A stretch of DNA of 56,253 nt from Sphaerobacter sp. (GTDB lineage: Bacteria > Chloroflexota > Chloroflexia > Thermomicrobiales > Thermomicrobiaceae), in NCBI GenBank assembly GCA_029961075.1, contig JASBVL010000060.1, positions 1-56,253 of the forward strand, given 5' to 3'. Positions 1-55,116 of the stretch are shown piece after piece (positions within the stretch are counted from its first letter, which is position 1; every line of letters starts with the position of its first letter). The notes under the pieces were generated by a model that saw nothing but the letters and a program-made list of their open reading frames with translations, ran no database searches and had not been told where the DNA came from. The translations under genes were made by a program, and so were the position numbers.

Positions 1-55
1 GCTCCACGAGGTCGGCCACGCCGTGGCCGTGCGTGCCTTCGGCGGCGAGATCACG
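1..55 (+). repeat. Left copy of a long direct repeat flanking the R-M cassette. Its right copy is 3025..3079 and probably extends 5' beyond the window.
   Basis: Direct sequence comparison: 55/55 nt identical. Confidence 0.85.
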
Positions 56-1900: not shown

Positions 1901-2628
1901 GGCAAGAGGCTCTAGAGGAACGACTGCGAGAGGCCATTCACCAATATTGGCAGACTCGGCAGACGCAGCAAGACCGCCAAGTCGCAAGCGGAAAGGCAGA
2001 TGCCGGTTCCCGGGGGGCCGTCACCGGCGGAGCGCAGATGCTGGCCTTCGAGCAGTTGTTGGTGAACCTATCAGTTGAATCTGGAGTACCTAGTGAGGAT
2101 ATCCATCGGCGCGCCGCGATCAACCTACCCGGCTACTACCGGCCAGAGAAGGAGTGGGATCTTCTTGTAGTCTCCCGTGGACAGCTTGTGGCCGCAATAG
2201 AGCTCAAGTCTCAGGCTGGCCCCTCCTTCGGAAACAACTTCAATAACCGCGTTGAGGAGGCGGTAGGCAACGCGACCGATTTCTGGACAGCCTACCGTGA
2301 AGGTCGGTTCGGGGCTGGGCCACGTCCCTTTCTCGGCTACTTCTTCTTGCTTGAGGATTGCGACAAGGTGCGCCGTCCGGTACGAAACGAGGAACCACAT
2401 TTCCCCGTGGATCCAGTATTTGCGAACGCCTCCTACAGCCAGCGGTACGAGATCTTCTGTCATCGCCTGGTCTACGAACGGTTGTACGACAGCGTCTGTC
2501 TCACGCTGGCGACGAAACCAACGATGTACTCCGCAACTCGCATCTCCCACCCGGCGGGCGACCTCACGTTCTACCGCTTTGTAGCAACACTGCAGGGACA
2601 CATCACCACATGGCTGCGGAGCCAGTGA
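1897..2628 (+). CDS. Putative Type II restriction endonuclease, companion of the methyltransferase. About 243 aa, a size consistent with PaeR7I/XhoI-class enzymes.
   Basis: ATGA start/stop overlap with the MTase gene at 1897-1900. Same low-GC block. M-first operon layout as in PaeR7I. No catalytic motif could be verified by eye. Confidence 0.45.
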   Translation: MRQEALEERLREAIHQYWQTRQTQQDRQVASGKADAGSRGAVTGGAQMLAFEQLLVNLSVESGVPSEDIHRRAAINLPGYYRPEKEWDLLVVSRGQLVAAIELKSQAGPSFGNNFNNRVEEAVGNATDFWTAYREGRFGAGPRPFLGYFFLLEDCDKVRRPVRNEEPHFPVDPVFANASYSQRYEIFCHRLVYERLYDSVCLTLATKPTMYSATRISHPAGDLTFYRFVATLQGHITTWLRSQ

Positions 2629-2806
2629 GGATGGTAGAGCCGTCTACCGGTCTTGGACAGCCAGCGTTCAAACCTGCTTCGCTCAGTCCATGGTCCGAAC
2701 GGACCCGTCCGACAGTTCTTCCCCCAAATCCCTCGGCACAGATCCGGTCGCCAGCAGAGTGAAACGACCACGTGGTTAGGGGAGTGCTCTGGCTTCCGAC
2801 TCCGCG

Positions 2807-3841
2807 ATGCTACAATTGCCGGGACGGAAAGGCCAGGGAGTCCACCCGGTGCCCACGCTCGACCTCGTCGCCATCCTCAGCCTGCTCATGGTGCTGGTGT
2901 CGATCCGCACGCTGGTCACGACGGTGCGCCAGCGCGCCACCCTCTTCGACGCCGCCTTCACCCGCGCCGACCGCCAGCAACTCGCCGAAGTCGCCGTCTT
3001 CCTCCTGCTGCCCATCAGCGTGCTGCTCCACGAGGTCGGCCACGCCGTGGCCGTGCGTGCCTTCGGCGGCGAGATCACGGGGTTCGGCTACTACTTCTTC
3101 TTCGGGTACGTCGCGCATCGCGGCTTCTACACCGCGGCGGACCTGTTCTGGATCGCGCTCGCCGGCAACCTAGTCAGCGTGGTGCTGGGGCTCGCCGCCA
3201 TCGCGCTGGTGGTGCTGCGCCCGCTGCGCCCGCCGGTGAACTACCTGCTGCTCATGTTCGGCGCGATCGACCTGGCCAACTCGCTCGTCTTCTATCCCCT
3301 GCTCGACTTCGCCGGCAACCTGGTCGGCGACTGGTCGCAGATCTACACGCGAGACACGCCGGTCCTCAGCGGGGTCACCGGGGTGATCCACGCCGGGCTG
3401 CTGCTGGCGGCCGTCGTCGCCTGGCGGAGCGACCGCGTGCGCCGGCTCTACGCCGCGCGCACCGGGATCAGCCCGCAGGCGGTGCGGCGGGTGACGCGCC
3501 GCCAGGTGGCGAACGAACTGCTGGCGGCCGGCGAGCAGCTCGCCGGGGCGTGGCGGCATCCGCTGCGGGTGGTGGCGGACGCGCAGGGCGAGGCGGTCGG
3601 CGTCCGCCTCCAGTGGATCAGCGGGGGCTACGGCCGCGTGGTCGCCGCCTACGCGCTGGTCGACGACTGGCGGCGGCTGGAACTGTACGGCGGCCTGCAC
3701 GCGCTCGACGGCGGCACGCCGCACCAGCAGCCGCTCGGGGTGATCGAGGGGATCCCCGAGCCGCCGGAGCTCACGCGGGTGCTGGCTCACGCGCTCGACG
3801 CGGTGGACGCGTGGGAGCGCCCACTCGCGCGCCTCGGCTAG
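2807..3841 (+). CDS. Polytopic membrane zinc metalloprotease, HExxH (LLHEVGHAV), M50/site-2-protease-like.
   Basis: Multiple hydrophobic helices. An HEVGH motif lies in a helix. A downstream NSLVFYPLLDFAG resembles the S2P NxxPxxxLDG motif. The start is uncertain; a later GTG or ATG is possible. Confidence 0.55.
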   Translation: MLQLPGRKGQGVHPVPTLDLVAILSLLMVLVSIRTLVTTVRQRATLFDAAFTRADRQQLAEVAVFLLLPISVLLHEVGHAVAVRAFGGEITGFGYYFFFGYVAHRGFYTAADLFWIALAGNLVSVVLGLAAIALVVLRPLRPPVNYLLLMFGAIDLANSLVFYPLLDFAGNLVGDWSQIYTRDTPVLSGVTGVIHAGLLLAAVVAWRSDRVRRLYAARTGISPQAVRRVTRRQVANELLAAGEQLAGAWRHPLRVVADAQGEAVGVRLQWISGGYGRVVAAYALVDDWRRLELYGGLHALDGGTPHQQPLGVIEGIPEPPELTRVLAHALDAVDAWERPLARLG

Positions 3842-3897
3842 CGCCGGGCGCCGCGAGGTCCGCATCCTGCGACCCATCCGAATGGAGGGCCGATGCC

Positions 3898-4755
3898 ATG
3901 CCCTGGTGGAGACGGGTCCGACACACACCGCCGCCACACGGCGCCGAGCCAGCCGCACCGGCCGGGACGCCGGGCGACGACGCCGGCCAGCCGTACATCC
4001 GCGACGCCGAGCGGCGGAGCCTGCGCCGCCTGCTGCAGCGCCGGAGCAACCTGGCGTACGACCTGGCGCAGGCCGAGCTGGCCCTGCAGCCCGAGAACCC
4101 CTGGACCGAGCGGATCGCCCAGCTCGACGCTGCGATCGCCCAGGCGGAGGCGGACCTGGCGGCGCTGCGGCCGGCGCCCGCGACCGTGCCGCGGGTCCAG
4201 CTCCCGGCCACGCCGATCGCCGTGGAGGACGTGCGCCCGGCGGAGCCGGCGGCGGTGACGCTGCGGGCCGGGGAGGTGACCCTCCGCTACCAGGAGGAGA
4301 TCGACTGGGCCGAGCGCGGCCATCAGGTGGCGCTGCCGCAGCTCGCGCGCGTAGCCGGGGACGTCGCCCCGTTGGTGCCGGCCGACCTGGAGGCGTCGAC
4401 GCGGGCCGCGCTGGCCGACCACCTGCGCCAGGGCTTCTCGATCGTGGCCGAGGAGGCGCTGGAGCGCGCCGCGGCGGGCGAGCCGCCGCCGGCCTACACC
4501 CTGGCCGACCTCACCCGCCCCTGCCCCACCTGCGGCGGCTGGCAGGACCCCAAGGGGCGCTGCGCGGCCTGCGCCGAGCTGGAGCGCCAGCGGCAGCGCA
4601 TCCGGGCCGGGCTGGAGCGGCTGCGCGCCGAGCGGGACGAGCAGCGGCAGGAGATGGAGCGCTACCGGGAGCGCCTGCCGGTCATCCGCCGGCAACTGGC
4701 CGAGACCGAGGCCGACATCGCGAAGCTGCGGGCCAAGGGGGTCGAGCCGGCGTAG
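3898..4755 (+). CDS. Hypothetical protein with a CPTCGG...CAAC zinc-ribbon motif followed by an Arg/Glu-rich coiled coil.
   Basis: This is the C-terminal portion of the 2653..4755 ORF. ATG at 3898. The composition is protein-like. No family recognised. Confidence 0.45.
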   Translation: MPWWRRVRHTPPPHGAEPAAPAGTPGDDAGQPYIRDAERRSLRRLLQRRSNLAYDLAQAELALQPENPWTERIAQLDAAIAQAEADLAALRPAPATVPRVQLPATPIAVEDVRPAEPAAVTLRAGEVTLRYQEEIDWAERGHQVALPQLARVAGDVAPLVPADLEASTRAALADHLRQGFSIVAEEALERAAAGEPPPAYTLADLTRPCPTCGGWQDPKGRCAACAELERQRQRIRAGLERLRAERDEQRQEMERYRERLPVIRRQLAETEADIAKLRAKGVEPA

Positions 4756-4860
4756 CGCGGGGGGCGCGTTCGGTATTGCGTGTTGCGTACTGCGTCGTGC
4801 GTGGTGCGGAGTGCGTGTGGAGGTATTCCCCTCACTCCTCACCCCTCTCCCAACATGGAC
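4756..4860. repeat. Repeat family A copy A1, a half element. It has tandem heptamers (GTATTGC GTGTTGC GTACTGC GTCGTGC...) followed by the core in reverse orientation (CCTCACCCCTCTCCCAAC).
   Basis: Seen in sequence. Shares the heptamer arm and core with the copies at 6305, 10598, 24150, 53090 and 54855. Confidence 0.7.
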
Positions 4861-5303: not shown

Positions 5304-6308
5304 TTGGCGAAGCAGCTCGGAATCGATCTGGGCACAGCCAACGTGCTCGTCTTCGTGCGTGGCCGCGGCATCGTGATCAACGAGCCATCCGTGGTCGCCA
5401 TCTCCACCAAGGACAACAAGGTCAAGGCGGTCGGGGTGGAAGCGCGCAACATGCTCGGCCGCGAGCCGCGGGAGACGATCGAAGTGGTCCGCCCGATGCG
5501 CGATGGCGTGATCGCCGACTACGTCGTCACCCAGGAGATGCTGCGCTACTTCATCAACAAGGCGGTCGGGCGCTTCTCGCTGGTGCGGCCGGAGGTGATG
5601 ATCTGCGTCCCCGCCGGGGTGACCGGGGTGGAGCGCCGCGCGGTGCGCGACGCCGCGCTGAACGCCGGCGCCCGGCGCGCCTACCTGATCAGTGAGCCGC
5701 TGGCGGCCGCCATCGGCGCCAAGGTGCCGGTGGCCGACCCGAGCGGGAACATGGTCATCGACATCGGCGGCGGCACGACCGAGGTCGCCGTCATCTCGCT
5801 CAACGGGATCGTCGTTGCCCGCTCGATCCGCGTCGGCGGGAACAAGTTCGACGACGCCATCGCCAACTACATCAAGCGCAAGTACAACCTGCGGATCGGC
5901 GAGCGCACCGCCGAGGAGGTCAAGATCGCCATCGGCTCGGCCATGCCGGTGGACTACGACCTCTCCATGGAGGTGCGCGGGCGCGACGAGGTCGCCGGGC
6001 TGCCGCGGACCATCCAGATCCACGCCAACGAGATCGTCGAGGCCATCACCGAGCCGCTGGAGGCGGTCATCGGGGCCGTGCGGGCCGTGCTGGAGGAGAC
6101 GCCGCCGGAGCTGTCGTCCGACATCATCGACAAGGGGATGATCCTGACCGGCGGCGGCGCGCTGCTGCGCCACCTGAGCGACCTGCTGACCGAGGTCACC
6201 GGCGTGCCGTGCTACGTGGCCGACGACCCGCTGAGCTGCGTGGCCATCGGCACCGGCCTGGCGCTGGAGTACTTCGACATCATCCGGGACAGCCTCGAAG
6301 AGCTGTGA
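5304..6308 (+). CDS. mreB: Rod-shape-determining actin homologue MreB.
   Basis: [29 protein letters not shown] and [14 protein letters not shown] are classic MreB motifs. TTG start as in the track. Confidence 0.93.
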
Positions 6309-6565
6309 GGCGCGGGGCGCAGGCCGTCTTGCGTAGTGCGTATTGCGTACTGCGTATTCCGTAGTCTGTGTTCCGTCTTCTCCCCTCTCTCAAAGTTGGG
6401 AGAGGGGCGGGGGGTGAGGGCTGCCCTACCACGCACCACGCAAGACGGAATGCCCAGCACCGAACACGCAACACACAATACGGAATACGCACTACGCGAT
6501 ACGCAATACGGAATACACACCACGCCTCACGCATCACGCCCCCAGGAAGCGCCGGCCCCTCCCCG
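6305..6565. repeat. Repeat family A copy A2, a complete element of about 260 bp. Layout: heptamer tandem arm, core CTCCCCTCTCTCAAAGTTGGGAGAGGGGCGGGGGGTGAGGG, then inverted heptamer arm.
   Basis: The left arm CGTATTGCGTACTGCGTATTCCGTAGTC... is mirrored by the right arm ...GAATACGCACTACGCGATACGCAATACGG. Confidence 0.75.
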
Positions 6566-6663
6566 CTCCGGCGCTCGTGGCACATGATTAGCGCGAGACA
6601 ACCTAGTTCGCGATCCCGGTGCTCGGGCACCGGCGCGCTCCGGCAGCGGAAGGACCGCCCGAC

Positions 6664-8202
6664 ATGGATACTGCCCGCTTCCCGCCCGGTCCCCGGCGCC
6701 TGCCCGTCGTCGGCAACGCCTACCAGTATCGCCGCGACCCGCTCGGCTTCGTGCGCGCCGCGCACAGGGAGTTCGGCGACATCGCCACCATGTACGTCGG
6801 CGCGTGGCCGATCGTCCTCTGCTTTCGGCCGGAGCACGTCCGCTTCTTCCTGGTGGAGCGCGCGGCGGCCTTCACCCCGGTGGGCGTGGCGCCGAACCTG
6901 ATGGAGACGCTGGGCGAGGGGCTGCTGACCACCGACGGGGAGTTCCACGACCAGCAGCGGCGGCTCCTCCAGCCGGCCTTCCACCGGCGGCGGGTGGAGC
7001 ACTACGCCGCCACCATGGTGGCCCGCACCGAGGAGATGCTGGACCGCTGGCGCCCCGGGGACGAGATCGACGTCGCGCAGTGGATGAGCGCCTTGACACT
7101 GCGCATCGTCAGCCAGGCCCTCTTCGGGGTGGACCAGGAGGCGGCCGGCGCGGAGCTGAACCGGGCCTTCGTGGACCTCATCGCGAACAGCCCGGAGACG
7201 ATCGGGCTGATCCGGCTGCCGCGGCTGAACCTCCCCCACACCCGCTACGGCCGGTACATGGCCGCGCGCCGCCGGCTCGACGCCTACGTCTACGACCTGA
7301 TCGATCGCCGCCGGGCCGCGGGGACGGATGGCGACGATGTGCTCTCCTGGCTGCTGACCGCCGGTGCCGACGGCACCGGGTTGACCGACCGCCAGGTGCG
7401 GGACCAGACGGTCACCCTCCTCGCGGCCGGGCACGACACGACCGCGCTCGCCCTCACCTGGACCCTCTTCCTCCTCTCGCAGCACCGCGAGGCGCGGGAG
7501 AAGCTGCTGGCGGAGCTGCGCGCGGTGCTGGGCGATCGGCCGCCGACCCCGGACGACCTGTCGCGCCTCCCCTACCTCGACTGGGTGGTGACCGAGTCGA
7601 TGCGGATCTACCCGCCCGCCTGGGCGCAGGGGCGGGTCGCGCTGGAGCCGTTCGAGCTGGAGGGCTACCGCTTCCCGGCCGGCACGCACGTGATGTTCAG
7701 CCAGTGGGTCATCCACCACCGGCCGGACATCTGGGGCGATCCCGACCGGTTCCGGCCCGAGCGCTGGGACCCGGCCCAGCCCCCACCCCCGCACTGGGCC
7801 TACTTCCCCTTCGGCGGCGGGCCGCGCGCCTGCATCGGTATGCCCTTCGCGCAGATGGAGGCGCGCCTGCTGCTGGCCACGATCCTCCAGCGCTTCGTGA
7901 CGCGCCTGGTGCCCGGGCATCCGGTCGTGCCCGCGCCCCGCATCACCCTGCGCCCGAAGTACGGCATGCGGATGATCCTGAACCCCGCGCCCGCCGCCCG
8001 CGCGGCGCCACCGGGGGTCCACGCAGCGAGCGACGTGGCCCCCCCGACACCCCATGCACGCCGTGACCAGGATTTCGGAAACCAGACAGGTGAAAAATCC
8101 ACGCGTCGTGTGGTAGAGTTACTAGTGGCACGGTCAGTGCCGCGGGCACGGGCCCCGCACCGACTTCCTCCATCCACCCAGGCATGCACTGGGCGTCGAT
8201 GA
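6664..8202 (+). CDS. Cytochrome P450 monooxygenase.
   Basis: AGHDTT (I-helix), ESMRIYPP (K-helix ExxR) and FPFGGGPRACIG (heme-binding Cys loop). Start taken at MDTARFPPGP; the track ORF is 6619. A C-terminal extension of about 60 aa is low-complexity. Confidence 0.85.
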   Translation: MDTARFPPGPRRLPVVGNAYQYRRDPLGFVRAAHREFGDIATMYVGAWPIVLCFRPEHVRFFLVERAAAFTPVGVAPNLMETLGEGLLTTDGEFHDQQRRLLQPAFHRRRVEHYAATMVARTEEMLDRWRPGDEIDVAQWMSALTLRIVSQALFGVDQEAAGAELNRAFVDLIANSPETIGLIRLPRLNLPHTRYGRYMAARRRLDAYVYDLIDRRRAAGTDGDDVLSWLLTAGADGTGLTDRQVRDQTVTLLAAGHDTTALALTWTLFLLSQHREAREKLLAELRAVLGDRPPTPDDLSRLPYLDWVVTESMRIYPPAWAQGRVALEPFELEGYRFPAGTHVMFSQWVIHHRPDIWGDPDRFRPERWDPAQPPPPHWAYFPFGGGPRACIGMPFAQMEARLLLATILQRFVTRLVPGHPVVPAPRITLRPKYGMRMILNPAPAARAAPPGVHAASDVAPPTPHARRDQDFGNQTGEKSTRRVVELLVARSVPRARAPHRLPPSTQACTGRR

Positions 8203-10584: not shown

Positions 10585-10597
10585 GAAGCCGTCCAGC

Positions 10598-10800
10598 GTC
10601 ATGCGTCAGGCGTCAGGCGTCATGCGTGTTCCGTATTGCGTATTGCGTATTGCGTGTCTTGCAGTGCGTGCGGTGTCAGGCGTCCTGCGTCCTCAGTGCT
10701 CCGCGGTCTCCCCGCTCTCCCGTGTGGGGAGCGGGGCCGGGGGTGAGGGGGACGGATGACGCATCACGGATGACGCATGACGTTCCCCCTCACCCCCGGC
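10598..10800. repeat. Repeat family A copy A3, a complete element. Layout: TCAGGCG/TATTGCG heptamers, core CTCCCCGCTCTCCCGTGTGGGGAGCGGGGCCGGGGGTGAGGGGG, then GATGACGCAT inverted arm.
   Basis: Seen in sequence. Confidence 0.75.
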
Positions 10801-10976
10801 CCGTGCCCGGCCGTCCACCCCCCAGGTCGGCCCGGCAGGGACTTGCATGCAGACCGAAGCCCGGCTACACTAGGGCCACTGTGTACGTACATAGATCGCA
10901 TGTTCTGTCAATTCACGCACTTTGTGAGGGATCTGTGACAGAAAGACACCTCTAGACAGCGGTTAGCAGGCCTGGT

Positions 10977-16460: not shown

Positions 16461-16594
16461 CGCTCCCCCGCTCCCTCTGTACGTACACGGAGTATGCCGG
16501 GGGCGAGCGGCGGCTGTCAACGCGCCGCGGCATCGCTCCTGCAGCGCACCGCGCGACGGAGCACGGAGCACGCAGCCGGGGACACGGGACGCGC

Positions 16595-17689: not shown

Positions 17690-17835
17690 CGTGCCCCAGA
17701 CAAAGCCCGGGAGGGCACGAGGCCCTCCCCTACCGCAGACGCGGGGCGCGAGCCACCGGTCGGCGCGGGGCGTGTCGAACGGAGCACCGCCCGGATTCCC
17801 ACGGGCGGGCACGAGGCCCTCCCCTACCGGGCATG
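17690..17835. repeat. Repeat family B cluster B1: GGGCACGAGGCCCTCCCCTACCG (x2) flanking GAGCCACCGGTCGGCGCGGGGCGTGTCGAACGGAGCACCGCCC.
   Basis: Seen in sequence. Units are shared with the clusters at 21345, 33600 and 40230. Confidence 0.7.
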
Positions 17836-21344: not shown

Positions 21345-21430
21345 CTGGTAGGGGCGGGGCTTGTCCCCGCCCGGTGGATTGCCGCACGCATGCGCGATCC
21401 GGGCGGGCACACGGCCCGCCCCTACCGGCC
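21345..21430. repeat. Repeat family B cluster B2: GGTAGGGGCGGGGCTTGTCCCCGCC ... GGGCACACGGCCCGCCCCTACCGG.
   Basis: Seen in sequence. Confidence 0.65.
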
Positions 21431-24149: not shown

Positions 24150-24250
24150 GTCTCGCCCCTCTCCCACGAGGGAAGCGGGGCCGGGGGTGAGGGGGACGAA
24201 CTACCGAGTACGCAATACAGAACACGCATTACGACGCATCACCCTCTCAC
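24150..24250. repeat. Repeat family A copy A4, a half element: core TCTCGCCCCTCTCCCACGAGGGAAGCGGGGCCGGGGGTGAGGGGG plus a right heptamer arm.
   Basis: Seen in sequence. Confidence 0.7.
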
Positions 24251-30760: not shown

Positions 30761-30924
30761 GGTATCCTCGAACAATTCGTCAACCGCCACGCGCATGGCT
30801 GAGGCGCTACGCGATCCCGGTGCTTGTCCGGGCACGCCACCATCCGGTGACTATTCGCGTAGCGCCTCAGGAGGTTCGGCGAATCGCTTGGCGACCGCAT
30901 CCGCGGTCAAGAGACCGAGGGATA

Positions 30925-33599: not shown

Positions 33600-33840
33600 C
33601 GGGCGGCTCCGTCCGGCACGAGGCCCGCCCCTACCGGAGAACGGCGCGAGCCACCGGTAGGGGCGGGGCTTGTCGAACGGAGCACCGCCCGCGCCATCCT
33701 TCGGGACACGCGGGAGGGCACAAGGCCCTCCCCTACCACACCGAGGCCGCGCCGACGCTGGGGCCGGGGGCCGGCGCGACTCCGTGCGACGCCGGCGCTC
33801 CACGCGGCGGGAAGGCACACGGCCCGCCCCGACCGGTGGA
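33600..33840. repeat. Repeat family B cluster B3. Units: GGCACGAGGCCCGCCCCTACCGG, CCGGTAGGGGCGGGGCTTGTCGAACGGAGCACCGCCC, GGGCACAAGGCCCTCCCCTACC and GGCACACGGCCCGCCCCGACCGG.
   Basis: Seen in sequence. The first two units form an inverted pair capable of a stem-loop. Confidence 0.7.
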
Positions 33841-33866: not shown

Positions 33867-34904
<1,038 letters not shown>

Positions 34905-35047
34905 GGTCGATGTCGTCTCCTCCCATTCGGCTTCGCGGACAGGGATCCGGTTGCCCTCATTATCACGGCTGGCCCCGGCGGACGCCACACGCCCGGGACA
35001 GTAGTGCCGCCGCGACTGCCCGGCTATACTAGGCCGGCTCCGGACCC

Positions 35048-36289
35048 GTGGGCGAGGTAGTGGCGTTCCGCAGCAGCGAGGAGCGACGAGCGGTGAAGCT
35101 GAGCCTGGGACTCGGCCGCGACCACACACGCATCTTCGTCGGGATGCTCTTCAACGAGGGCTCGCTGGGGATCTATCAGACCCTATGGCCGCTCTACATC
35201 GCCTCGCTCGGCGCCGCCCCGGAGCAGATCGGGCTGGTCATCGGCCTGCTCGGCGCCGCCCGCCTCGTCGCCCTCCTCCCGAGCGGCATGCTCGGCGACC
35301 GGGTGCCGGCGCGCACGCTGATCGTGGGCGGGCGCCTCGCGGTCGCGGTCGGCACGCTGCTCCTCGGGCTGGCGCAGGCGTGGTGGCAGCTCATTCCCGG
35401 GGTGATCATCATCGGCGTCGGCACGATCACCTTCCCGGCGCTGTCCAACGCGGTGGCGGAACTGGCGCATGACAGCCACGAGCGCACCCGCGCGTTCACG
35501 CTGATCTACACGATTGGCCCATCGGCGGCCTGGTTCGTCACCCCAACGATCGGCGGGCTGATCGCCGAGCATGTCAGCCTGCGCGCGCTCCTCTTCGTGG
35601 CCAGCGGGCTGGCCGCCATCTGCGCCGCCATCTTCGCCACCATCGCGGCGGGAGCGGCCACGACGCAGGAGGGGCCGCCGGTGACCTACCGCTCGACCCT
35701 GGCCGAGCGCCCGGTCCGGCAGGTCTTGCTGCTCCAGTTCGTTACCCTTTTCGTGCTGACGATGGGCGTCACCCTGGCGCCGAACTTCCTGCAGGACGTC
35801 CACGCGATCAGCCGCGAGCGGATCGGCTGGCTCGGCTCCTGCGCCGCGGTCGGCAGCGCGCTGCTGGGGCTCACGATCAGCCGGGTCGCCCGGTTCCGCC
35901 GGCCGCTGACCGGGATCGCGCTGGCGACCACGGCCGTCGGGGGCACGCTGCTGCTGCTGCTCGTCGGCCACAGCTTCGCCTGGTTCGTCTTCGCCTACCT
36001 GCTGCGCGGCGGCTACATGGTGGCCTGGTCGACCTACTATGCCGCCCTGGGTGAGGTCACCCCCAACCGGTACCTCGCGCGGGTCTACGCGCTGGCCGAG
36101 CTCTTGGCGGCGGCCGGGCTCATGCTGGCGCCCTTCGCCGCCGGCTGGCTGTACGAGCGGGAGCCGCGGGCGCCGCTGCTCGTCGCCCTCCTCGCGATCC
36201 CGGTGCTGCTGCTGGCGATCGTCGCGGTCGGCCGCCGGCTGCGGGTGGCCCAGCCGGCCGAGCCGACGCTGGCCGGGGAACAGGCCTGA
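35048..36289 (+). CDS. MFS-family transporter.
   Basis: 12 predicted helices. MFS motif-A-like [10 protein letters not shown]. The start is uncertain. Confidence 0.75.
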
Positions 36290-36402
36290 GCGCGGGGCGC
36301 GCCCCGGCTGGTATCCTTGCCGGGCGGGAGCGCGACGCGAACGGTCGCGGCCTGGCCGGTCGCCCGGCTCAGACCGGCGCGCGCCCGGACAGGGAGCCAG
36401 GG

Positions 36403-36936
36403 GTGGCCATCTTCCGACGACGACAGCGTCCCGAGGCGGAGGCGGGTCCGCCGACGACGGCCGACCTGCGCGCGCAGCGTGCGGCGGAGTGGCAGCGCTG
36501 GTTCCAGGGCGCGGCGGCCGAGGCGGACTACCGACGGGCCTTCCTGCAGTACTCCCCCCTGATGTGGGAGATCGTGCAGTCGACCCAGCGGGAGCTGCTC
36601 GCCCTGCTCGTCGGCCGGGTGCCGGCCGAGCTGGGCGTGCCCGCCATCTTCGCGCTCAGCCTCCTCTACAGCCGGCACGCGAAGCCGGACGACGCAGCGC
36701 GCGCGACGCTCGCCACGATCGTCCACGAGCTCGCCCCGGCGCACGCCCGGACCCTGCTGGCGGCGCTGAGCGATGCCTGGCACAACGCCCAGCGCTGCCC
36801 CTACGACGCGCGCGCGCCGCTGGTGCGCGAGGAGTTCACCCGCGCGCTGCGGCGCCTGGCGACGACGAGCGCCGAGGAGGCCGGTGCGATCTCGGCGATC
36901 CAGCAGCAGATCGCGTTCGGCTGGGAGGCGGCGTGA
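36403..36936 (+). CDS. Hypothetical protein, 177 aa.
   Basis: ORF with protein-like composition. GTG start. Confidence 0.45.
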   Translation: MAIFRRRQRPEAEAGPPTTADLRAQRAAEWQRWFQGAAAEADYRRAFLQYSPLMWEIVQSTQRELLALLVGRVPAELGVPAIFALSLLYSRHAKPDDAARATLATIVHELAPAHARTLLAALSDAWHNAQRCPYDARAPLVREEFTRALRRLATTSAEEAGAISAIQQQIAFGWEAA

Positions 36937-36966
36937 GGCGCCGTGCGGGCCGCCGGCTGACGACCC

Positions 36967-37293
36967 CTACCCGCGCACCTGGCCGGCCGCGGTGAGGAGG
37001 CGCTCGAGCACGCGGCCGGCGTCCTCGCCCACGCGGGCGAAGAGCGCCCGGGCTTGCAGCACCTCCACGTCGCCGCCCGCCGCGGCGGCGCGCTCGGCGG
37101 CGCGGAACCCTATCATGCTCACGCCGAGCGGCCCCAGCACCTGCCAGATCAGGTCCTTGAGCTGGGCATAGGTCACCGGGTCGGCCTGCGGCACACTCCA
37201 CTCCTCGATGGTGCGCTGCACGCCCGGCAGACGCTCCCGCAGGATCTCAGCGAGAATCTCGGCTCGGTCGCGGTCCTCCATGAGCCTTACCAT
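36967..37293 (-). CDS. Hypothetical small protein, about 104-108 aa. It is the C-terminal part of the 36967..38073 ORF; start at MVRLMEDRDRAEIL.
   Basis: Protein-like composition restricted to this segment. It is convergent with the upstream gene. Confidence 0.3.
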   Translation of the reverse strand: MVRLMEDRDRAEILAEILRERLPGVQRTIEEWSVPQADPVTYAQLKDLIWQVLGPLGVSMIGFRAAERAAAAGGDVEVLQARALFARVGEDAGRVLERLLTAAGQVRG

Positions 37294-37467
37294 CCCTTGA
37301 TGATGTCGTGCCGTTCCCCGTTCGCTGAGTATGCACTCAGGCGGGGGGCGCTGTCCGCCCACCTCGGTGGTCGGCCACCTGGTCCGGGGCGGCGCACGCC
37401 CCATGCCGGGGCGGGGCGGGCCGCGCTGGCGTATACTGTCCCGCCACAGGGAGAGGAGGGAGCGGCG

Positions 37468-38049
37468 ATGCATGGCCCGTCGTGGATCAATCTGCTCCTG
37501 GGTGCCGGGCTCGCGCTCTGGGTCGTCGAACTGCTCGTCATCTGGCGCGCCGCGACTCGGGAGGGGGCCGACCCGATCGCGCGCGTCTCGGGCGCGGCGA
37601 TCTTCTTCGTCCTGGCCCTGCCGGTCGCGATCGCGGCGCCCGACCTGGTCGAGCGGCTGGCCGGGTTCTGGGAGCGGCTCACCGCGTTCGACGCCGGGAG
37701 CGGGCGGGGCGAACCGGTGGCGCGCCTGGTCATCGGGGGGAAGAGCTTTCCGCTCACCGGCGAGCGCATCCGGATCGGTCGCTTCGGGAACAACGATCTG
37801 GTGCTGGACCACCCGACGGTGTCGGCCTACCACGCGGAGTTGGTGCGGCGGCCGGACGGCCGGTACGAACTGACGGACAACGCGAGCAGCAACGGGACGC
37901 GCATCAACGGCACGCCGATCCGCTCGGCGGTGCTGCGCGACGGCGATCTGATCACCATCGGGGCCCTGTCGATGCACTATCTGATGCGGCCGGCCGGGGA
38001 GCCTGGCCTGGAGGGAGCGCCGCGCCTGAGCCGGCGGCGGGCCGGGTAG
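37468..38049 (+). CDS. Membrane-anchored FHA-domain protein.
   Basis: Two N-terminal hydrophobic helices, then the FHA core (RIRIGRFGNNDLVLDHPTVSAYHAEL...SSNGTRINGT). RBS GAGAGGAGGG. Confidence 0.75.
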   Translation: MHGPSWINLLLGAGLALWVVELLVIWRAATREGADPIARVSGAAIFFVLALPVAIAAPDLVERLAGFWERLTAFDAGSGRGEPVARLVIGGKSFPLTGERIRIGRFGNNDLVLDHPTVSAYHAELVRRPDGRYELTDNASSNGTRINGTPIRSAVLRDGDLITIGALSMHYLMRPAGEPGLEGAPRLSRRRAG

Positions 38050-38148
38050 GGTACGGCGCAAACCAAACACCATCCGGCTGAGGGCGAACCGGATGGTGTG
38101 GTTGGTCGATGGGACAGGCGCTGGGAGTCCCCAGCGCCCGCAGCTTGC

Positions 38149-38481
38149 TTAGTAGCGGCTGTAGCTGCGCTGTCCACGAATCTCCTGGAAGCAGTCCGAG
38201 CAGTAGACCGGCTTGTCATTCCGCGGGACGAAGGGGACCATGGTCTCCTTGCCGCAGTTGCTGCACACGGCCGGGTGCATCGTGCGCTCCGCGCGGGCGC
38301 CATACCCGCCATAGGAGCTACCGCCCGCGTCGCGGCCGGTCTTGGCCGCACGGCGGCACGAGGGGCAGCGCCTGGGCTCGTTGGTGAAGCCCTTCTCTGC
38401 GTAGAACTGCTGCTCACCCGCGGTGAACACGAACTCGGTCCCGCAGTCGCGGCAGGTCAGGGTTTTGTCTGCGAAGCTCAT
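38149..38481 (-). CDS. Zinc-ribbon protein with duplicated CxxC-x17-CxxC (zf-trcl-like).
   Basis: LTCRDCGTEFVFTAGEQQFYAEKGFTNEPRRCPSCR and a second CSNCG...CSDC copy. Confidence 0.72.
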   Translation of the reverse strand: MSFADKTLTCRDCGTEFVFTAGEQQFYAEKGFTNEPRRCPSCRRAAKTGRDAGGSSYGGYGARAERTMHPAVCSNCGKETMVPFVPRNDKPVYCSDCFQEIRGQRSYSRY

Positions 38482-38915
38482 CTCGTCGAGATCTCCTTGA
38501 TTGCGCTAGGCCGCCACGCTGGCGGCGAATCGGATCTTTCGGGTCAGGCTCAGGTTCTCGGCGAGATGGTTCGGAGACAGGCCCTCGCTGCCGCCGTGGA
38601 CACGCGCTTTGAAACCTTGGCCATCGAGTTTAAACATTATCACACTTCGCGACGAAACGCTAGCCCTTTTGGGCTGTTTGCTCCGCACTTGGCCGGGCTG
38701 CCCTGCCTCCCGGGCACCGGCCGCACGGACCGGACGGCCGGAATGGTGGGGCCGGCCGCGGCGTTGATCACCGCGAAGCCGGGCAGGCCGAGGTGGCCCG
38801 CGCACCCGTGGCCGGTCGGCCCATGGTAGAGTCTCCCGCGGGTCCATGCAGCGCATGACCGGCTTCCCGACGCGAGCGCGGCCGCCTCGGAGGCGGCCGC
38901 GCGAGGGAGACGATC

Positions 38916-40229: not shown

Positions 40230-40615
40230 GGGCACGCACGGCGACGCCCCTACCGGGCACGCCAGTCGCCGACCACCGGTAGGGGAGGGCCTTGTGCCCT
40301 CCCACGTCCAACGCGGGCGACGCCGTCCGGGATACGCCCCGCCTCTCGTGGCTGGCGACGGGGGTCTATGGTAGGGGAGGGCCTGGTGCCGGACGGAGCC
40401 TCCCGCGTTTACATCGGGCGGTGCTCCGTTCGACAAGCCCCGCCCCGAGCGGAGAACGGCAGAACGGGCGCGGGGCTGGTCGGTAGGGGCGGGCCGGGCG
40501 CCGACCGGGGGCCGGTGAGGCTCCGTCCGACGCCGGCCCTCCCGGGTCGCCCCGAGCCGCCCGCGCGTGGACGTGGGCGGCTCCGTGCGGCACCCGGCCC
40601 GCCCCTACCGGAGCA
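40230..40615. repeat. Repeat family B cluster B4, the largest. It has five or more units in both orientations: CCGGTAGGGGAGGGCCTTGTGCCC, GGTAGGGGAGGGCCTGGTGCCGG, GGGCGGTGCTCCGTTCGACAAGCCCCGCCCC, GGTAGGGGCGGGCCGGGCGCC and GGCACCCGGCCCGCCCCTACCGG.
   Basis: Seen in sequence. Confidence 0.7.
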
Positions 40616-40665
40616 GGACGACGAGCACCCCGGATCGGGGCGATGGTGCCTGAAGCGGCCGCCAA

Positions 40666-53089: not shown

Positions 53090-53220
53090 GCGGTAGGTGG
53101 TGCGTACGCCGTAGTCCGTGTTCCGTCCTGCTCCCCTCTCCCAGCGTTGGGAGAGGGGCCGGGGGTGAGGGTGGCGTATGACGCACTACGCACTCCGCAC
53201 TACGGTCTACGCGACACGCC
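53090..53220. repeat. Repeat family A copy A5, a complete element that abuts the hemE stop codon. Core: CTCCCCTCTCCCAGCGTTGGGAGAGGGGCCGGGGGTGAGGG.
   Basis: Seen in sequence. Confidence 0.75.
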
Positions 53221-54273
53221 TCACCCCTCACGCGCGCTCACCTCGTGCACCAGCTCGACGACGAAGCGGACGTTGTCCACCGGCGTCTCGGGCAGGATGC
53301 CGTGGCCCAGGTTGAAGATGTGGCCGGGGCGCCCGCCGGCGCGGCGGAGGATGTCCAGCACGTGCCGCTCGATCTCCTCGCGGGGGCCGAACAGGACGAG
53401 CGGGTCGAGGTTGCCCTGCACGGCCCGGTTGTGGCCGACGCGGGCCCAACCGTCGTCGAGCGCGATGCGCCAGTCGAGGCCGACCACGTCGGCACCGGTG
53501 GTCGCCAGGGCCGGGAGCAGCCCCGCCGTGCCGGTGCCGAACACGATCACCGGCGCGCCGAGCGGCGCCACCGCGGCGACGATGCGGCGCAGGGAGGGGA
53601 GCACGCGCCGCTCGAAGTCGCACGGGGCGAGCGCCCCGACCCAGGACTCGAAGAGCTGAACGGCCTGCGCCCCGGCCCGGATCTGCCCGGCCAGGTAGCG
53701 CGCCGTCATGTCGCTCAGCTTCGCCATCAGCGCCTCCCAGACTTCGGGGGCGCGGTACATGAGCGCTTTGGTGCGCCGGTAGTCGCGGGAGCTGCCGCCC
53801 TCGATGAGGTAGCTGGCGACGGTGAAGGGGCCGCCCGCGAAGCCGATCAGCGGCACCCGGCCGTCCAGCTCGTGCCGGACCAGGCGGATGGCCTCCAGCA
53901 CGCTCGGCGTGGCCTCCTCCGGCTCGCGCACGACCAGCGCCGCGACGTCGGCGGCGGTGCGCACCGGGTTGTGGATCACCGGCCCTTCCCCGGCGGCGAA
54001 CGTCAGCTCGATCCCCATCGGCACGAGCGGGAGCAGGATGTCGGCGAAGATGATGGCGGCGTCCACCCCGAGTCGGTCGATCGGCTGGAGGGTGACCTCG
54101 GCGGCGAGCTCGGGCTGGGCGCAGATCTCGAGTAAGGTGTGGCGGGCGCGGATGGCGCGGTACTCGGCCATGTAGCGTCCGGCCTGACGCATGAACCAGA
54201 CGGGCGTGCAGTCCACCGGCTGGCGCCGGCAGGCACGCAGAAAGCGGTCGGCGGCAATGGCTCCGTCGGCCAC
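53221..54273 (-). CDS. hemE: Uroporphyrinogen decarboxylase.
   Basis: [27 protein letters not shown]-terminal signature. GTG start with AGGAGG RBS. The track ORF is extended to 54501. Confidence 0.9.
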
Positions 54274-54845: not shown

Positions 54846-54854
54846 GGCGGCAGG

Positions 54855-55020
54855 CGTCACCCGTCATGCGTCATACGTGATGGCGTATTGCGTATTCCGT
54901 GGTGCGTGGTGCGTGCCCCTCACCCCCGGCGCGTCTCCCAAGGCTTGGAGAGGGAAGAATACGGAATACGCAACACGCAGTACGCAATACTGCCCCGCCC
55001 CACGGATGACGGGTGACGCC
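54855..55020. repeat. Repeat family A copy A6, a complete element with clear terminal inverted repeats. GGCGTCACCCGTCAT on the left pairs with ATGACGGGTGACGCC on the right. The heptamer arms are GCGTATT GCGTATT CCGTGGT GCGTGGT, and the core lies in reversed orientation.
   Basis: Seen in sequence. Confidence 0.78.
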
Positions 55021-55116
55021 TAACGGCCGGTTGACACCCTGGCGATACCATGATATGCTCATGCCGCGATAACGGGCAGGCTCCAGCGGAGCAGATACGT
55101 TGGGCCGGGACAGCGC

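Follow-up and report, generated by a model that had tools for sequence, protein, structure and literature searches.

What are the large, imperfectly palindromic repeats of seven-nucleotide units that punctuate a genome of Sphaerobacter sp. (Chloroflexota, Thermomicrobiales), and how do they come to lie just behind genes? We examined a 56,253-nt stretch of contig JASBVL010000060.1 (the window), in which a preliminary description made from the sequence alone had recognized six copies of a repeat, here called family A (copies A1 to A6), each with arms of tandem heptamers around a palindromic core. The observation is real: all six copies are present where they had been placed, and each has period-7 arms. 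Chains of CGT (left arm) or ACG (right arm) at 7-nt spacing are confined to these six sites in 56 kb, the sole exception returned by the chaining script being a weak, intragenic chance chain at 16556, and Tandem Repeats Finder places arrays of period 7, 14, 21, or 28 exactly at the six sites. All six copies are intergenic, and in a window of 72% G+C their arms form relatively AT-rich islands. The core, judged by its sequence, is already known: it is the BoxC/PIT/TM_ECO intrastrand triplex motif, type B, with 10-nt blocks in place of 9-nt blocks, an identity that the preliminary description had missed.

At the center of the copies is a hairpin of the form CTCCCCTCTCCC-loop-GGGAGAGGGG followed by CCGGGGGTGAGGG, as first described. 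The full layout, CTCCCCTCTCCC-loop-GGGAGAGGGG-CCG-GGGGTGAGGG, has five matches in the window against none expected by chance, and the 23-nt core GGGAGAGGGGCCGGGGGTGAGGG, with up to three mismatches allowed, is found at 6398, 10727, 24171, and 53149 on the plus strand and at 54917 on the minus strand, with no match in 100 shuffles. Holder et al. (2015, Nucleic Acids Research 43:10126, PMC4666352) describe a single motif that was named BoxC, then PIT, then TM_ECO, with the consensus CCCTCNCCC N3-6 GGGNGAGGG N3 GGGNGAGGG and a second loop of TTA (type A) or CCG (type B). The C block CCCTCNCCC and, after a loop of 3 to 6 nt, the complementary GGGNGAGGG are matched by A5 (CCCCTCTCCC, AGCGTT, GGGAGAGGGG) and, with one or two deviations, by A2, A3, and A4; the motif has decayed in A6, and the C block is missing from A1. 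The second loop is 3 nt long, CCG (CGG in A2), and leads into the mirror G block, such that GGGAGAGGGG read in reverse aligns with GGGGTGAGGG in G/G, A/A, and A/T positions. None of the window copies matches the strict published 9-nt-block pattern because their blocks are 10 nt long; once widened to 10-nt blocks the pattern matches A5 exactly, with one additional G/C triad per block. An E. coli copy read from a fetched locus, CTCCCCTCTCCCtttcaGGGAGAGGGctgGGGTGAGGG, has the same three-block build as the window cores. Both E. coli copies in locus L184 (strain ETEC1721, upstream of yhjE) match the strict pattern. They form an inverted doublet, at 18–52 on the minus strand and 154–188 on the plus strand (~100 nt apart), one member being of type A (TTA) and the other having a second loop of CTG, an arrangement resembling the inverted type A/type B pairs of Holder et al. 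(PMC4666352). A BLAST search with the core against E. coli genomes gave weak hits alone, the query being short and of low complexity.

The published census of the motif counts 3,610 copies in 262 proteobacterial genomes, always intergenic, without strand bias, and frequently as inverted doublets; for the E. coli sequence, circular dichroism and nuclear magnetic resonance (NMR) show a stable triplex of the single strand in vitro, a structure undetected in vivo (PMC4666352). Earlier work cited there found the E. coli motif to be without promoter or terminator activity and to block DNA polymerase in vitro. The motif is tied to local genome instability, has no known function, and in E. coli shows neither a link to mobile elements nor an association with phage (PMC4666352). 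As single-stranded DNA, the window core could form either a hairpin with a purine-motif triplex or a G-quadruplex. Although the core is a canonical, perfect four-tract G-quadruplex motif, we rejected the quadruplex as the primary reading since NMR favored the triplex for the E. coli sequence (PMC4666352) and the G-rich strand has no sense bias here, being sense in 19 cases and antisense in 16.

Family A shares with BoxC/PIT/TM_ECO the succession of C-stem CCCTCNCCC, variable loop, GGGNGAGGG, 3-nt loop, and mirror-symmetric GGGNGAGGG, as well as a strictly intergenic location, the lack of strand bias, inverted doublets (A3 and many other loci), a patchy occurrence among close relatives, and local rearrangement, A2 bordering a 1.8-kb indel with a P450 gene in it. 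It differs in that most copies here have ordered heptamer arrays, flanking heptamers being a subject on which PMC4666352 is silent, and in its hosts, which are Chloroflexota, at least 12 phyla in all, and viral contigs, whereas that paper concerns proteobacterial genomes. No later literature linking the motif to flanking heptamers was found in the searchable papers, and the combination of core and ordered heptamer arms seems undescribed in the literature searched.

The canonical window copy is A5, whose core (53131–53171, plus strand) reads CTCCCCTCTCCC, AGCGTT, GGGAGAGGGG, CCG, GGGGTGAGGG. Its left arm (53099–53130) of four to five units abuts the ribosome-binding site (RBS) and ATG (53075) of the minus-strand epimerase gene downstream, and the outer end of its right arm (53174–53233, eight units) overlaps the end of hemE on the minus strand (stop codon 53221–53223); A5 occupies the entire gap between the hemE stop codon and the epimerase RBS. 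The A2 palindrome starts at the mreB stop codon (6305–6308), with a left arm at 6324–6379 of eight units (CGTCTTG, CGTAGTG, CGTATTG, CGTACTG, and so on), a core at 6380–6420 on the plus strand (C-stem CTCCCCTCTCTC, loop AAAGTT, G-stem 1 GGGAGAGGGG, loop CGG, G-stem 2 GGGGTGAGGG), and a right arm at 6429–6540 of ~15 NNNN-ACG-type units, predicted to pair with the left arm on folding (z = −7.1). The left arm of A3 (10589–10692), which begins 5 nt past the yidC stop codon, has 13 units, with GCGTCAG and GCGTCAT outermost and GCGTATT closer to the core. The A3 core (10708–10751, plus strand) reads CTCCCCGCTCTCCC, GTGT, GGGGAGCGGGG, CCG, GGGGTGAGGGGG and is followed by an inner block of five units (10752–10783; ACGGATG ACGCATC ACGGATG ACGCATG ACGT), which forms the loop between G-stem 2 and its complement, and by a decayed, inverted second core (10784–10812, minus strand; TCCCCCTCACCCCCGG CCCGTGCCCGGCC) that makes the arrangement a doublet.

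The remaining copies are less complete or inverted. A4, with convergent genes on either side, has a core at 24152–24195 on the plus strand (CTCGCCCCTCTCCC, ACGA, GGGAAGCGGGG, CCG, GGGGTGAGGGGG), no left arm, and a right arm at 24196–24250 of ~7 units with a terminal CACCCTCTCAC. A1 consists of a left arm at 4771–4820 of ~7 units (CGGTATT GCGTGTT GCGTACT GCGTCGT GCGTGGT and others) and a degenerate core remnant on the minus strand at 4828–4853 (reverse complement TTGGGAGAGGGGTGAGGAGTGAGGGG), without C-stem and right arm. The left arm of A6 (54853–54915) begins 8 nt past the stop codon of a cupin gene and has four GCGTCAT-type units followed by five of the GCGTATT/GCGTGGT type; its core (54916–54954) is inverted and partly decayed (CCCCTCACCCC, GG, CGCGTCTCCC, AAGGCT, TGGAGAGGG on the minus strand), and its right arm (54958–55020) reads AATACGG AATACGC AACACGC AGTACGC AATAC and, after a gap, CACGGATGACGGGTGACGCC, its outer 15 nt being an exact inverted repeat of 54853–54867. 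Half elements and inverted copies, both proposed in the preliminary description, therefore do exist, A1 having a left arm alone, A4 a right arm alone, and A1 and A6 a core in reversed orientation. Every copy begins 0 to 15 nt beyond a stop codon, as had been noticed. The genes named upstream stand for A2 (mreB), A3 (yidC), A5 (hemE, minus strand), and A6 (the cupin gene), whereas the open reading frames (ORFs) upstream of A1 and A4 have no Pfam hits.

Both arms are microsatellites of heptamers that expand and shrink by entire units. On the 3′ side the units follow the consensus S-A-N-B-A-C-G and on the 5′ side its complement, the A-C-G anchor being partly built in by the way units were detected; the commonest units are CAATACG, GAATACG, and CATGACG in the window and CATGACG, CATCACG, and GAACACG in the metagenome set described below. 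In alignments totaling 127.6 kb between loci of 97% identity or more, the indel rate is 2.36 per kb in arrays and 0.217 per kb outside them (~11-fold), without elevation of the substitution rate in arrays. Five of the seven array indels sum to exactly one 7-nt unit, whereas a length of 7 nt is seen in none of the 27 non-array indels, and four one-unit changes between near-identical loci are independent, with a fifth pair repeating one of them. Such whole-unit change between strains is the behavior of replication slippage.

The arms are also ordered. With GCGTCAT/GCGTGAT designated T units and GCGTGTT/GCGTATT A units, most of 35 two-armed copies have the block order T..T A..A, core, T..T A..A, which is not a mirror image; A3 has this canonical order, and the order in A6 (T A core A T) makes that copy a true palindrome. 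The earlier proposal of an inverted heptamer arm on the far side of the core is thus borne out in that most copies have a second run in the opposite orientation, and falls short in that the arms are no simple mirror images, the same block order standing on both sides of the core in most related copies. Arm length ranges from 0 to 15 units across copies. Predicted folds are far more stable than those of shuffled sequences (z = −7.1 for A2, −6.5 for locus L133, and −4.1 and −3.8 for others), full copies folding mainly by pairing of the two A blocks. A long hairpin maintained by selection was nevertheless rejected: the duplex energy of a copy's own arms (−69.3 kcal/mol) is no better than that with the arms of other copies (−68.8 kcal/mol, p = 0.45), and there is no covariation support. 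The palindromic look is accordingly a property of the family, and no copy-specific hairpin is kept. Also rejected was a supply of stop codons in three frames by ATGACGC arrays: that unit does provide them, but the arrays are found where the element is exited, and CAATACG, the dominant unit type of the window, is stop-free.

Two further arrangements of arrays were seen. In a metagenome contig (L146, ~2220–2350, minus strand) the second G block is expanded into a tandem 8-nt array (GGGGGTGA, ~9 copies), followed by CACGCTT/CACGCAT/CACGCCT heptamers and then by CATCATT units, which suggests kinship between the G block and outer units of the CTCACGC type. Palindromes of paired left and right arrays without a core occur in loci L152 (8210–8328), L145 (3200–3315), and L181 (105–191); arms can thus exist without the core.

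The composite of core and arms is specific to a sublineage of the Thermomicrobiales that comprises Sphaerobacter-like genomes and the genome of the window. The window MreB is 98 to 87% identical to proteins of Thermomicrobiales (Thermomicrobiaceae, Nitrolancea, Thermorudis, and Thermomicrobium). In seven other Thermomicrobiales, 91 kb around mreB contain no core (up to four mismatches) and no array. A metagenome scan with the second G block and four ACGS units at 7-nt spacing as query gave 60 loci, mostly of 67 to 70% G+C, one of which (L167) is 81 to 85% identical to window positions 33880–38666. The canonical element in this set has a left arm of GCGTCAT, ACGTCAT, CCGTGTT, and GCGTATT units, a core reading CTCCCCTCTCCC, CTGGT, GGGAGAGGGG, CCG, GGGGTGAGGG, GG, and a right arm of ACGCATG, ACGCATC, ACGGAAC, and ACGCAAT units; a common variant has an 18-nt hairpin loop. 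In 522 kb, 147 of 157 period-7 arrays (~94%) lie within 200 nt of a core, the converse coupling being looser, with many armless cores and few core-less array palindromes. Among the matches listed in a genome scan for the core, CGT-type units stand beside it only in Sphaerobacter sp. HOG56 (L076) and a Chloroflexota metagenome-assembled genome (L089). The family is thus dispersed, as the preliminary description had supposed from six copies, with dozens more at unrelated loci in Sphaerobacter-like metagenome contigs and in Sphaerobacter sp. HOG56, and the flanks of the six window copies are likewise unrelated at all six sites, so that these are not fragments of one duplicated locus.

Between relatives, the whole composite is gained or lost as a unit. 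In L167 a 165-nt element lies between convergent genes, and the orthologous gap in the window (36935–36967) holds 31 unrelated nucleotides. Locus L121, with 91% nucleotide identity to the window in mreB, has no A1, and a block that comprises A2 and a cytochrome P450 gene (window 6313–8110; L121 4064–4193) is likewise missing from it, homology resuming at window position 8111. A2 thus borders an indel the size of a gene, in accord with the local instability described for the motif (PMC4666352). The comparison of occupied and empty sites proposed in the preliminary description thus finds whole elements present or absent at orthologous sites, although no target-site duplication was seen at the sites compared.

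Family A also has a marked position relative to genes. Among 47 nonredundant elements for which neighboring genes were called, these are codirectional in 35 cases, convergent in 11, and divergent in 1, against a background of 157, 52, and 41, respectively (binomial probability of at most one divergent case, ~0.002), and the median gap from stop codon to element is 3 to 12 nt. Several related copies stop a few bases short of the RBS and ATG of the next gene; since A5 and similar copies abut the RBS and leave no room for a promoter, they must be transcribed through. A consensus scan found no σ70-like promoter inside A1, A2, A3, A5, or A6, and no U-tract terminator inside or at the edge of these five copies, a consensus that may not apply to Chloroflexota. 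A good σ70-like promoter match (TTGACA, 17 nt, TATGCT, with an upstream TG) is present on the plus strand at 55031–55059, 10 nt past the end of A6 and directly before a gene for an ArsR-family regulator. No copy has an Rfam match at the gathering threshold, and a relaxed search with A2 (E-value up to 10) returned chance-level microRNA and small nucleolar RNA hits only; family A is therefore no described RNA family.

Outside this sublineage the core is widespread. A scan for exact GGGAGMGGGGCSGGGGGTGAGGG in one genome per species gave at least 120 loci; among the matches listed, the exact 23-mer occurs in at least 12 phyla, in hosts of 38 to 75% G+C that include Planctomycetota, Chloroflexota, Acidobacteriota, α-, β-, and γ-Proteobacteria, Armatimonadota, Gemmatimonadota, Verrucomicrobiota, Desulfobacterota, Myxococcota, Bipolaricaulota, and Gastranaerophilales, which we take to be nonphotosynthetic relatives of Cyanobacteria. 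The complementary C-stem, which was absent from the scan pattern, lies upstream of the core in 125 of 130 genome hits among the matches listed, with 89 distinct loop sequences, and in 74 of 81 viral hits. Exact copies of the 23-nt core occur in 70 stretches of viral contigs in IMG/VR (L185–L254), contigs that are predicted and in which true phage and host flank are not distinguished. Some of these (e.g., L223, at 293, 2239, 5431, and 8208, L235, and L188) contain three to six copies in the same orientation inside a conserved element of ~80 nt.

Heptamers of unrelated sequence, some of them forming inverted arms, adjoin the identical core in several of these phyla and in viral contigs: ATTGCAG and GCAATCT in an acidobacterial locus (L090), CCTGAGT and ACTCAGG in Planctomycetota (L021), and a CCCTACA/CCCTATC array in Chthonomonadaceae of the Armatimonadota (L007), with AATTGAC and TCAATTG lying between the cores of a doublet in Gemmataceae (L055), as does ATCTCAA in Alcaligenaceae (L085). 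Among long bacterial microsatellites, heptamers are in any case the most frequent (Mrazek 2007, as cited in PMC4692102). In a flank test based on Tandem Repeats Finder counts with a control for intergenic gaps, period 7 was the commonest tandem period beside the core: 9 of 121 genome flanks among the matches listed had it (random segments, 1 of 310), as did 12 of 79 flanks from viral contigs. Within the same loci, intergenic-like gaps contained heptamers in 7 of 60 cases with the core and 7 of 285 without it (Fisher p = 0.004, among the matches listed); the corresponding difference in the viral set was not significant (2 of 14 versus 13 of 269). This cross-phylum enrichment is modest and serves as a lead. 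It is in our estimate a long shot that a common mechanism ties the triplex motif to heptamer repeats throughout bacteria. If it did, the motif might be a site of polymerase stalling at which 7-nt slippage products are seeded and mirrored, and the bacterial preference for heptamers among long microsatellites could then be approached directly; or core and heptad arms might be the footprint of a widely transferred mobilization or DNA-binding machinery whose heptad specificity depends on the lineage.

Taking these observations together, we think it somewhat probable that family A is an intergenic element of a selfish or neutral kind, prone to form structures and tolerated behind genes, with arms shaped by replication slippage. 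It would consist of two modules, a triplex-motif center and paired heptamer microsatellite arms with blocks of fixed polarity to the core. It would act mainly at the DNA level and persist where it does least harm, at the 3′ ends of genes and away from promoters. The core, which per the literature stalls polymerase in vitro, may promote slippage in the adjacent arms. Full copies, when transcribed, would fold into long stem-loops just past the upstream ORF, and these could shield or attenuate mRNA as REP (repetitive extragenic palindromic) elements do in E. coli, as a side effect. Several points weigh against this interpretation. Four conserved and three variable unit positions and a fixed block order look overconstrained for neutral slippage and could mean a heptad-reading protein; conserved unit positions and ordered blocks are the observations it explains least well. 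The tight abutment on stop codons could reflect a selected 3′-end role or an insertion preference. The spread of the composite to new loci is left unaccounted for, and the proposed link from stalling to slippage draws on the E. coli PIT literature and on the modest cross-phylum enrichment.

An alternative is that family A is a nonautonomous transposable element, similar to a miniature inverted-repeat transposable element (MITE) or to REP/REPIN sequences. Its arms would be terminal inverted repeats or would offer a transposase several binding sites, and its central hairpin would be recognized by a tyrosine transposase supplied in trans (of the RAYT, or REP-associated tyrosine transposase, or IS200 type) or by another transposase. 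A consensus shared by unrelated loci, the presence or absence of whole elements at orthologous sites, a patchy, lineage-specific distribution among relatives, frequent inverted core doublets reminiscent of REPINs, and the exact 15-nt terminal inverted repeat of A6 all fit this idea, and GTAG-tagged REP-like hairpins (family B, below) occur in the same genome, so that a RAYT may be present. MITEs are matched by the size of 100 to 260 bp, the inverted-repeat ends of some copies, and the intergenic dispersal with presence/absence polymorphism. The sole clean occupied/empty pair (L167 versus the window), however, has no target-site duplication and an unrelated sequence, not a clean junction, at the empty site, no target-site duplication is seen beside A6 either, and the ends are not fixed, with arms of variable unit number that show no extra complementarity within a copy. 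The A6 ends, which the preliminary description had likened to terminal inverted repeats in proposing a nonautonomous mobile element, are generic, since any left arm pairs about equally well with any right arm. That proposal also lacks its partner: no transposase was seen, and no pair of arrays in ~520 kb is spaced so as to enclose a gene, hence no autonomous copy. Candidates for such a copy were sought as arrays split by 0.5 to 5 kb and as large indels between near-identical loci, and were rejected, the indel between L128 and L180 bordering a family B hairpin, not family A.

The comparison with REP, BIME (bacterial interspersed mosaic element), and REPIN sequences likewise goes only part of the way. 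Family A resembles them as a short, GC-rich extragenic palindrome that occurs after genes or inside operons, forms inverted doublets, and could yield stem-loops at mRNA 3′ ends. It differs from them by its third (mirror) block and its microsatellite arms, a heptamer periodicity that is atypical for REP/BIME, as had been remarked at the outset. The hairpin foot has no GTAG/CGTC tag and is flanked by heptamer units or the CCG loop, CGTC and GTAG occurring only inside some heptamer units. The association of REPs and REPINs with a RAYT is not seen here, the ORFs of the fetched loci not having been searched against transposase families. In E. coli, Holder et al. (PMC4666352) found the core unlinked to mobile elements. 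We regard transposition as an unlikely explanation of the family.

A selected element acting at the RNA level is, in our view, about as improbable. In this case a stem-loop behind the ORF would end transcription, block 3′-to-5′ exonucleases, or stall terminating ribosomes, and would tune the upstream gene and operon polarity as E. coli REP/BIME elements do, an idea that partly overlaps with the side effect envisaged above. The location a few nucleotides past stop codons and almost never in divergent gaps fits it, as does fold stability far beyond that of shuffles. The arms would give an identical hairpin from either strand, which fits the absent orientation bias, and the promoter-like site directly after A6 places that copy at the end of a transcription unit. 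The suggestion in the preliminary description that the repeats are transcript-end structures is thus compatible with their position, but the scanned copies have no U-tract or terminator consensus, several copies of the family abut the RBS of the next gene, and A5 and several related copies must be read through. Moreover, the half elements A1 and A4 are unable to form the long hairpin, the lack of copy-specific arm complementarity gives no sign of maintained pairing, the same genes lack the element in close relatives, and the core had no promoter or terminator activity in E. coli (work cited in PMC4666352).

In a third reading, the heptamer arrays would be cooperative sites for a lineage-specific DNA- or RNA-binding protein, distributed as binding or regulatory sites over the chromosome. 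Seven-nucleotide reading has precedents: the omega repressor of pSM19035, a ribbon-helix-helix protein, binds runs of 7-bp heptads, direct or inverted, and HutP reads RNA triplets at 7-nt spacing. The arms resemble omega operators in their contiguous 7-bp runs, direct or inverted, with few conserved positions in each; omega operators, however, are few, promoter-proximal plasmid sites with a known binder, whereas here there are dozens of chromosomal sites behind genes, and the resemblance may be taken as a lead only. In keeping with protein recognition, unit positions 1–2 (S-A) and 5–7 (A-C-G) are kept while positions 3–4 vary, units have a fixed orientation to the core and their types form ordered blocks, and many arrays end beside the following start codon; heptamers near start codons have been proposed as regulator sites in Beggiatoaceae and Nostoc. 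Against this, no candidate protein was identified, the A-C-G anchor comes partly from the detection method, unit number drifts between strains, and the elements are dispensable at orthologous sites. That unrelated heptamers adjoin this core in other phyla points to a process more than to a single specificity of binding. We hold this reading to be very unlikely.

Intergenic heptamers are known from other bacteria: GGGAATC and GGGGAYT in Xanthomonas and Nostoc (Rehm et al. 2015, PMC4692102), TAACTGA in Beggiatoaceae, Cyanobacteria, and Bacteroidetes (MacGregor 2015, PMC4679880), and three heptanucleotides in Calothrix PCC7601 (cited in PMC4692102). Family A shares with these simple sequence repeats its tandem 7-nt units, a noncoding location near stop or start codons, copy number that varies between relatives, occasional inverted pairs, overrepresentation relative to other unit sizes, and a function that is unknown. 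The Calothrix repeats are known as STRR. Unlike such repeats, the arms described here consist of a degenerate unit family (S-A-N-B-A-C-G) rather than a single heptamer, have ordered blocks, and are for the most part tied to a conserved core. An artefact, whether chance likeness, misassembly, or pieces of one duplicated locus, has only the low-complexity look in its favor and can be practically discarded given five core matches against none expected, arrays confined to six sites with unrelated flanks, and recurrence of the composite across independent assemblies of many samples and in a species genome derived from an isolate.

The window contains other repeated sequences. Family B, a second dispersed repeat, has on the minus strand the form of GTAG-tagged REPs (GTAG followed by GGGAGGGC-loop-GCCCTCCC), with copies at 17708–17737, 17802–17831, 21400–21429, 33609–33638, 33711–33740, 33808–33837, 40416–40461, and 40575–40620, grouped in twos or threes ~95 to 100 nt apart. 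A GTAG-23 family is listed for Thermomicrobium roseum (Di Nocera 2013). The family B hairpin is also found in Sphaerobacter-like loci, where it adjoins a 2.4-kb indel (L128 versus L180). The first 55 nt of the window (1–55) are exactly repeated at 3025–3079, the two copies having been located within long ORFs (116–1900 and 2653–4755) that may be paralogs or the product of a recent duplication, with identity that may extend to the left of the window. A full-length DUF3800-IX RNA at 30798–30867 on the minus strand (49.7 bits, cut-off 36.8) is the sole Rfam gathering-threshold match in the window.

What family A brings together are two puzzles, physically joined in one abundant, ordered element: the BoxC/PIT/TM motif, known since the 1990s and without an accepted function or spreading mechanism, and the excess of heptamers in bacteria. 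For genome annotation, recognizing these elements averts spurious small ORFs and miscalled terminators in Thermomicrobiales genomes. The lineage includes Sphaerobacter thermophilus, which is cultivable, and replication stalling at the core with the unit slippage it might drive, a heptad-binding protein, and an influence of the elements on the 3′ ends of transcripts become testable questions.

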